Positions 39,272-39,932 of a DNA stretch of 64,000 nt are shown here, piece by piece. Location of the stretch: positions 310,001 to 374,000 of the forward strand of contig NW_027590160.1 of NCBI RefSeq assembly GCF_964213995.1. Reading direction: 5' to 3'. This stretch comes from Mustelus asterias. Lineage: Eukaryota. The notes under the pieces are model-generated. The model was not told the origin of the DNA and ran no database searches. It was given only the letters and a program-made list of their open reading frames with translations. Numbering within the stretch: the first letter of the stretch is position 1; the number at the start of each line of letters is the position of its first letter. The translations under genes were made by a program, and so were the position numbers.

Positions 39272-39614
39272 GGCTTCTCGGCCTTTTGGCTAAGATCAAG
39301 TGTAGTATGGATTGGATGCTGCACTTGGTTGAGGTCATTAGGTTACATTGAAGCTTCATATGTTTCATATGAAGCAATTTTTAAAAGCGGTATCTCGGCC
39401 TTTTGGCTCAGATGCAAAAGAGATGAAGTCTTGGAGGAGGAATTGCTTTCCCTCCTCCAATCAGCTTGGCTCATGTAGATCGGGCCCAGGACAGGGTAAA
39501 TGGTCGCTTGCCCTGTCTTGCCAGCCTGGATCGGAAATGTCTCAACTTGTTGAGACTCTGAATTGGACTTGATTTCATTGAATTGGAAAAGTATGTTAAA
39601 AAAATCAAAAAAAA
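39272..39614 (+). mobile_element. U2 snRNA-headed SINE-like retroposon, copy 1
   Basis: 39273-39308 equals U2 nt 4-39 (GCTTCTCGGCCTTTTGGCTAAGATCAAGTGTAGTAT). Non-U2 hairpin-rich body, A-rich tail, 16-bp TSD ATCTGTACTTGCAAAA. Confidence 0.85.
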
Positions 39615-39630
39615 ATCTGTACTTGCAAAA

Positions 39631-39932
39631 GGCTTCTCGGCCCTTTGGCTAAAATCAAGTGTAGTATGGATCGGATGCTGCGCTTGGTCATTAGGTTACA
39701 TTTAAGCTTCATTTGAAGCAATTTTTAAAAGCGGCATATCGGCTTTTTGGCTAAGATGCAAAGGCCTTGGAGGAGGTGAGTCTGCACCTACTCCAATCAG
39801 CTTGGCTCATGTAGGTCAGGCGCAAGACAGGAGTGAAGGCCTTGTCTTGTCAGCTTGGATCGGAAATTTCTCAACTTGTTGAGACCATGAATTGGACTTG
39901 ATTTGATAGAATTGAAAAAGTATTTTTTAACA
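39631..39932 (+). mobile_element. U2 snRNA-headed SINE-like retroposon, copy 2
   Basis: U2 head with 2 mismatches (39632-39667), homologous body, followed by ATCTGCATTTGCAAA (39933-39947). Confidence 0.85.

Follow-up and report, generated by a model that had tools for sequence, protein, structure and literature searches.

Short retroposons headed by an snRNA sequence have been described as SINEU-1 to SINEU-3, which begin with U1 or U2, occur only in crocodilians according to the sections of Kojima 2015 (PMC4494074) that treat them, and use Mariner-N4 as a target together with Tx1-Mar. How they are transcribed is left unanswered there, because snRNA genes lack a promoter of the internal kind. 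U2 genes themselves also receive retroelements. The published target of Keno is the U2 flank TCTGTTCTTATCAG (target passages of PMC6136364; Keno is also treated in PMC4640811), and Utopia shares this U2 insertion point, with weak specificity in some families, as outlined in parts of PMC4640811.

The element reported here occurs as two tandem copies in the window, i.e., the 64,000-nt stretch of Mustelus asterias DNA that was analyzed (contig NW_027590160.1, positions 310,001 to 374,000). Most likely they represent a non-coding retroposon with a U2 head that is present in about 5,000 copies. Its predicted multi-hairpin fold is preferentially kept in source lineages, its transcription likely starts at U2 promoters, and a Keno-type LINE of the Tx1 clade likely mobilizes it. 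By structural definition the element is SINEU-like, with a U2 head (36/36), a length below 500 bp, no coding content, repeated occurrence, an A-rich tail, target-site duplications, master copies and a target shared with a Tx1-clade LINE, as compared by description and not by sequence homology. Like SINEU as portrayed in the relevant sections of PMC4494074, it combines a U2-derived head and repeated U2 pieces with a short non-coding body, internal oligo-T tracts, tandem copies sandwiching a target-site duplication, 5′ additions of U2, a target preference shared with a Tx1-clade LINE, and no LINE with the same tail. In contrast to that portrayal, the U2 gene itself is targeted here, copies stand at U2 promoters, the host is different, an inverted copy is predicted to mask the head and the selection that acts on the fold is measurable; an origin independent of crocodilian SINEU is likely. 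The same U2 3′ flank (TCTGTTCTTATCAGTTTAAT) and a U2 5′ piece upstream are shared with Keno (passages of PMC4640811 and PMC6136364), of which a similar LINE is present in both U2 clusters of this genome, whereas the element has no coding content and lies mostly at dispersed sites, a relaxation that the LINE here shows too. Utopia has a restriction-like endonuclease according to the same parts of PMC4640811, whereas the LINE at the shared sites here has an APE domain. Our literature search, which included sections of PMC4758252, returned no paper on such an element outside crocodilians, and the family may be catalogued in Repbase. The features of the locus are as follows.

39256..39272, + strand: first target-site duplication (ATCTGTACTTGCAAAAG), whose initial 10 letters match U2 nt 38-47 (ATCTGTTCTT) at 9/10
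39273..39594, + strand: copy 1 of the U2-headed retroposon, the younger one, 95-98% identical to many dispersed copies
39273..39308, + strand: U2 head of copy 1, nt 4-39, 36/36 identical to U2 genes of the same genome
39302-39307, + strand: branch-site sequence GTAGTA within the copy 1 head
39316..39344, + strand: inverted, G-U-rich copy of U2 nt 11-39, predicted partner of the head that would bury the branch-site sequence
39280-39344, + strand: predicted stem of head and inverted arm in copy 1, 25 pairs
39353..39375, + strand: hairpin H1 of copy 1, with a tip length that differs between lineages
39376..39387, + strand: linker AATTTTTAAAAG, predicted single-stranded (Sm-like site), 8/9 to PuAUUUNUGPu but without its G, resembling the T/A tail of the family
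39376-39383, + strand: Sm-like motif AATTTTTA of copy 1
39390..39415, + strand: second piece of U2, roughly nt 7-30, with the fold of an extended U2 stem-loop I
39420..39473 (core 39431-39460), + strand: hairpin H2 with basal stem and UCA bulge, tip variable
39478..39532 (core 39487-39520), + strand: hairpin H3 with basal stem, carrying the sole well-populated two-sided pair
39539..39556 (also given as 39540-39555), + strand: hairpin H4, GTCTCAA-CTTG-TTGAGAC, almost invariant
39580..39614, + strand: 3′ end GAATTGGAAAAGTAT and variable T/A tail, with a weak likeness to the Keno-type LINE end GAATAAAGTATATTTTTGAAAT(A)n
39615..39631, + strand: target-site duplication separating both copies
39632..39923, + strand: copy 2, of a different lineage, older and decayed, about 80% identical to copy 1 and 89-91% to its closest dispersed relatives
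39706-39719, + strand: H1 of copy 2
39720-39731, + strand: linker of copy 2, with AATTTTTA at 39720-39727
39767-39796, + strand: H2 of copy 2
39823-39849, + strand: H3 of copy 2
39869-39884, + strand: H4 of copy 2
39933..39947, + strand: third, diverged copy of the target-site duplication (ATCTGCATTTGCAAA)
39956..40027, − strand: neighboring tRNA-Gln(TTG) gene, outside the element, whose 3′ flank took both insertions

The two copies come from different lineages, share 80% identity and have the duplication between them, and hence are two insertions into one site in the tRNA-Gln 3′ flank; next to other tRNA-Gln units of the window, at about 9040 and 23838, there are related empty sites. Copy 2 has 6- and 8-nt deletions that are absent from its paralogue in L006, so its decay took place after insertion. 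The surrounding cluster of tRNA genes (for Gln, Gly, Glu and Leu, some copies being decayed; window 6200-41000) lies within a duplicated unit of about 15 kb, and the stretch with the tandem element is present at no fewer than nine places of the assembly; L010 holds a single chimeric copy, as if recombined between both. Elsewhere in the window (47063-49615), an 875-bp inverted repeat with arms that are 95% complementary and 803 bp apart, and with an extra copy at 27303-27952, looks like a non-autonomous DNA transposon.

Exact matches to two 20-21-mers of the element numbered 3,532 and 4,242 genome-wide (0 for reversed controls), and from the overlap of both motifs on a single contig (69 shared, out of 87 and 100) a copy number of 5,100-5,350 is estimated. 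All 20 loci fetched from the 31 that matched by the tail only belonged to the element family and not to the LINE. A search with copy 1 returned 2,381 candidates, of which 40 were scored. The sample analyzed comprises 203 copies, 159 of them near full length, in which likeness-picked copies are mixed with a pattern-picked series and from which 18 loci duplicating the tRNA cluster of the window were excluded. The element is about 320 nt long, its copies end in GAATTGGAAAAGTAT and then a T/A tail, and target-site duplications of 8 nt or more flank 94/199 copies. The 5′ ends lie at U2 +1 in 50/158 copies and within +5 in 110/158; a cap-derived extra G was present at 0/23 junctions with a mapped duplication, an uninformative count. 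The U2-derived parts are limited to nt 1-39 and the second piece, and beyond these the element has no significant match to U2 stems II-IV; descent of H2 or the Sm-like region from the U2 3′ half was rejected as not significant against shuffles, though the Rfam alignment forces such an assignment. Lineage variants are shared between copies and many lineages with different loops coexist, and as far as sequence comparison goes the family appears to have propagated from master copies and not as independent U2-LINE chimeras, with most dispersed copies presumably promoterless and dead. In one older lineage (L308-L310, L312-L315), the inverted arm is more perfect, the linker is T5A6, the 3′ end is shorter (GGATATA) and the borders of the H2 and H3 modules are nearly the same; H2 and H3 resemble duplicated modules AGATCAAGC...TCAGCTTGGATC in older lineages. 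Stacked insertions also occur, in which the same nick is reused and the duplication sandwiched, far above what the loose nick preference described below would give, and the LINE does so too; another tail lies ≤80 nt upstream in 33/203 copies (e.g., L030, L091, L107, L152, L168, L243, L253 and L260). Five sequencing runs from two studies, none of them recorded as RNA, were available for comparison; contigs of three of these, compared with the body of copy 1 only, show the family in two organisms, and are uninformative on starts, ends and level.

True U2 genes lie in arrays in this genome and score 175-190 bits in Rfam. On contig C24 (L061:1950-7720, L041-L052), an 8,035-bp tandem array has a unit with an intact U2 gene and a broken Keno-type LINE (as examined in L061), at whose 5′ joint U2 5′ pieces are stacked, and a 1,833-bp U2 array lies nearby. 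The LINE of this unit has ZCCHC3-type RBD, CCHC, APE, RT and zf-RVT domains and is inserted before TCTGTTCTTATCAG, and APE-RT LINEs with this 3′ flank sit in U2 at L061, L064, L218 and L220; domains and target, in place of a tree, put it among Keno-type LINEs of the Tx1 clade. On contig C21 (L218, L220, L303; about 28.04-28.09 Mb), a second U2 gene type, at 175 bits, has a 448-bp tandem unit with a different 3′ half and upstream DNA, and its cluster is packed with Keno-type LINE copies in both orientations. The upstream 23-mer of this type was found 15 times, followed by the element in seven cases, by the LINE in four and by an intact U2 in four. The element stands there directly behind U2 upstream sequence with six different head-loop variants, and the layout of some copies is U2 upstream DNA, U2 nt 1-39, body, tail and U2 from nt 38 to the end, with the tail joined exactly to U2(38-52) at six junctions. 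Of the seven, a single one is located in the U2/LINE cluster proper; the remaining ones resemble array pieces or transcripts that were retrocopied, three of them with flanking duplications, and one more copy, degenerate and 80% identical, stands at the promoter of the main U2 array. Since every U2-resident copy differs from the dispersed lineages (94-98% identity at best) and just one of the seven is in the cluster, no active source gene was identified. Retrocopied U2-array pieces with flanking duplications (spacer, U2, element and sometimes the LINE 3′ end) occur at L187, L188, L214 and L304, and at the start of two of these an additional U2 5′ piece is attached, its junction lying after nt 46-48.

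The sites of dispersed insertions connect the element with the LINE. The nick context AGY/A (slash at the nick) was found in 19/58 dispersed insertions against a background of 4.7% (p 1e-11), and the U2 site reads TAGT/ATCTG; the L1-type nick TT/A, with five of the 58, was not enriched and was rejected. There are 286 exact LINE tails, and among 30 sampled ones the element follows directly in three, with the duplication shared, and an inverted element in one, whereas U2 follows directly in 0/30. Comparison of the element with the Keno-type LINE gave no significant homology of body or tail outside the U2 pieces, and derivation of the body from this LINE was rejected. A snRNA gene with a promoter of its own was rejected likewise, as a query of U2 promoter plus element gave one such locus and 39 ordinary U2 genes among 40 scored.

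The earlier note had proposed, from the two copies alone, a multi-hairpin fold with an Sm-like site. The four hairpins and AATTTTTA were all recovered in both copies at the positions listed above; the largest stem (39280-39344) and the second U2 stem-loop I (39390-39415) had been overlooked, and the two-nucleotide TT loop given for H4 cannot close, the predicted loop being CUUG. Persistence in the two copies, which had been taken as a sign of selection, reflects common descent and is hence not independent evidence. Folding was more stable than in shuffled sequences, with z -8.1 for copy 1 and z -2.7 for copy 2 (0/200 shuffles as stable for each) and, across 25 family copies drawn at random, a median z of -7.0 (20 shuffles each). 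The set of 137 raw copies folded poorly in RNAalifold due to private mutations, thus single-copy pairing was averaged over 159 copies to give a consensus of 88 pairs, a structure that derives from the same sequences as the substitutions. Changes present in ≥5 copies were counted as shared and private ones served as the neutral control, with CpG transitions excluded and alleles in 2-4 copies (42 keeping and 50 breaking a pair) omitted; the shared changes would mostly come from source genes and the private ones mostly postdate insertion. In stems, 25/35 shared changes kept the pair compared with 22/127 private ones (p 3e-9), the other 10/35 breaking a consensus pair. For transitions only, where 102/176 possible changes would keep the pair, the counts were 22/24 and 20/36 (p 0.004). 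The transition-only test was null on the fold of the decayed copy 2 (p 0.77), and in four slid controls, with partners moved by one or two columns, the pair-keeping excess was gone. Because shared substitutions keep pairs far more often than private ones and the slid controls are null, the fold is under selection, most likely for transposition. The structured RNA under selection that had been proposed is thus upheld as to structure and selection, and it belongs to a retroposon of about 5,000 copies instead of a snRNA-like ncRNA gene.

Two-sided covariation, which had been suggested as a check, did not exceed shuffles among 30 chosen copies (score 0.075 vs 0.073, 83/500; three pairs vs 3.1), a comparison of low power as most pairs hardly vary, and the RNAalifold covariation term was only -0.29. 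The exchanges of G-U and Watson-Crick pairs reported for H3 between the two copies are present, but all are one-sided; family-wide, the pair atop H3 varies on both sides (GC 48, AT 47, GT 16). Numerous A-to-G changes, the mark of edited double-stranded RNA (ADAR), were seen in 3/159 copies, with 11, 12 and 17 such changes among 15, 18 and 19 differences. The hyper-edited copies are L117, L152 and L224. A general A-to-G bias was rejected, as the A>G/T>C asymmetry vanishes without the five A-to-G-rich copies (p 0.42). Through its changes, L224 has AATTTTTGG, a canonical Sm nonamer, in place of the Sm-like site, and editing of the RNA could in principle create such a nonamer.

The Sm-like site reads AATTTTTAAA in 126/168 copies and AATTTTTTAA in 21/168. 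In older copies the site is T5A6 and the next letters are CGGCATC, identical to the final four bases before the main U2 gene together with its initial three. For this reason AATTTTTA is likely the remnant of a T/A tail, or a linker, and not a selected Sm site; it would be an old tail left where the halves of a dimer were joined. A search for a free left monomer gave 11 matches of the longer A-run, of which 10 run into the right half and one (L316) ends there without a visible duplication. The motif is also weak on its own, since purine-A-T4-6-A occurs at 0.44 per kb on the + strand of the window. Overlapping it, TTTTTAAAAGCGG (window 39378-39392) loosely resembles the snRNA 3′-box consensus, and CTTCAAAAACAGC and TGTCAAAAGCAGA lie downstream of the two U2 gene types.

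Four other explanations were weighed against a U2-promoter retroposon with a selected fold. The hairpins might be neutral by-products of how the element was built, by fold-back copying and duplication of U2 pieces, with apparent selection due to biased mutation or to circularity in calling the structure; for much of the body, a reading as direct and inverted pieces of the U2 5′ part is indeed possible, the two-sided covariation is not significant, and A-to-I editing adds A-to-G changes that keep pairs. However, the excess persists without CpG and A-to-G changes (14/16 shared vs 12/28 private, p 0.005), on the copy 1 fold alone (29/35 vs 19/39, p 0.003) and in the unbiased subsample of 90 pattern-picked copies (19/22 vs 21/41, p 0.007), it is lost on sliding, shared transversions lie in loops (37/48 vs 35/126), and hairpin tips were rebuilt as different stems in several lineages, so that this explanation seems improbable. 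The first idea, that of a host snRNA variant working in splicing with the dispersed copies as its pseudogenes, draws on the fold under selection, on the intact U2 nt 1-39 of the window copy and on Rfam, which does score copy 1 as U2 (56.4 bits, above the cut-off of 46). That score nevertheless derives from the head, and the body alone reaches 17.4 bits (U2 7-26), far from true genes. The likeness to U2 snRNA (RF00004) extends to the identical nt 1-39, the second stem-loop I and a U-tract between stems, whereas homology to stems II, III and IV and a consensus Sm site are lacking, the branch site is predicted paired and a retroposon tail is present. GUAGUA, noted before as kept, is intact in copy 1, but only in 101/159 copies across the family (12 not located), with GTAGTT in 12, GTATGG in 8 and GTGGTC in 7 of the 159, in several lineages; where intact it is predicted to be paired (median 0.98), with an opening cost of 10.4 kcal/mol compared with 1.7 in U2 of the same genome, so that the predicted fold does not offer the accessible, invariant GUAGUA of a functional U2-type snRNA. 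Many coexisting lineages differ in their loops, and the copies at U2 promoters are insertions and not genes of their own, because they interrupt U2 and end in the tail plus the rest of U2. With the rest of U2 absent and the consensus G missing from the Sm-like site in nearly all copies, the suggested snRNP variant finds little room, and a role in splicing is hardly credible.

The retroposon RNA might also travel as an Sm-class particle, with an Sm ring on AAUUUUUA, or else on U2's true Sm site in a read-through transcript, a trimethyl cap, and export and re-import as an snRNP to meet the LINE proteins and return to U2 genes. The Sm consensus is PuAUUUNUGPu with an adjoining stem, and selection in vivo gave AAUUUUUGG right beside the stem (passages of 10.1101/857334 and PMC6954390); the motif matches 8/9 of it, is predicted open between two stems (paired 0.10), as the earlier note had it, and is 97% conserved, its sole shared change, T5A4 to T6A3 (21/168), retains the U-tract, and U2-resident copies would be U2-promoter transcripts still holding the U2 3′ half. 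Against this, the G is fixed in no lineage and the AU4-6G form (A, T-run, G) occurs in 2/168 copies, one of them hyper-edited; the conservation only equals that of the 3′ tail (0.97 each), older copies are more tail-like (T5A6), the 3′ stem begins 5 nt past the nonamer and not directly beside it, and the true Sm site is predicted to be paired (0.94) in the 480-nt read-through unit. Our literature search on the Sm site yielded no direct test of A at the G position. Sm binding by the element RNA would be possible, and the full Sm-class route is doubtful. Transcription could instead start from a promoter of the element's own or from any flanking promoter, with copies in U2 genes as bystander insertions. 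The perfect octamer ATGCAAAT, the snRNA enhancer motif, is found in 163/193 copies, dispersed copies number thousands with few U2-resident ones assembled, and the upstream tails mentioned above (33/203) mean that neighbors could act as promoters. On the other hand, 5′ ends halt at U2 +1, the octamer is lost in both window copies, and six head-loop variants stand directly behind U2 upstream sequence, which makes an independent promoter unlikely. The octamer lies at family position about 140-147 (window 39412-39419, altered there), is absent, within one mismatch, from the upstream regions scanned of both U2 gene types, and may be a chance product of the changed U2 piece.

The element is thus likely a parasite of the U2 promoter, not a new splicing RNA. 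In the mechanism that we propose for it, the LINE endonuclease would cut at AGY/A, best in U2 (TAGT/ATCTG), and insert copies at many sites, occasionally in a U2 gene. A copy landing in a U2 gene would sit under the upstream snRNA promoter and take the gene's own nt 1-39 as its head, so that the head would stay identical to U2. The transcript would be made by Pol II, since internal T4-T5 runs argue against Pol III (an argument as in the transcription section of PMC4494074), and could fold at once, with the inverted arm hiding the U6-pairing and branch-site sequences, which would give a stable RNA that is harmless to splicing. The other stems may stabilize the RNA or bind LINE proteins, and on the predicted fold the hairpins likely serve both RNA stability and LINE-protein binding; the LINE proteins would then prime on the A-rich tail and scatter copies. 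A bolder version, in which a snRNA-mimicking retroposon homes in on U2 genes, is transcribed off the U2 promoter with a splicing end silenced by fold-back, acquires an Sm ring and trimethyl cap via the non-canonical AAUUUUUA and uses the snRNP pathway back to U2 loci with Keno proteins, has rather little probability.

For the U2-promoter parasite proposed here, the copies that stand within U2 genes, right behind the upstream promoter, provide a concrete and testable answer to the question of how U2-headed SINEs could be transcribed. The family is also a rare case in which selection on the RNA fold of a parasite can be measured, for which a plausible reason would be the hiding of the working end of U2.
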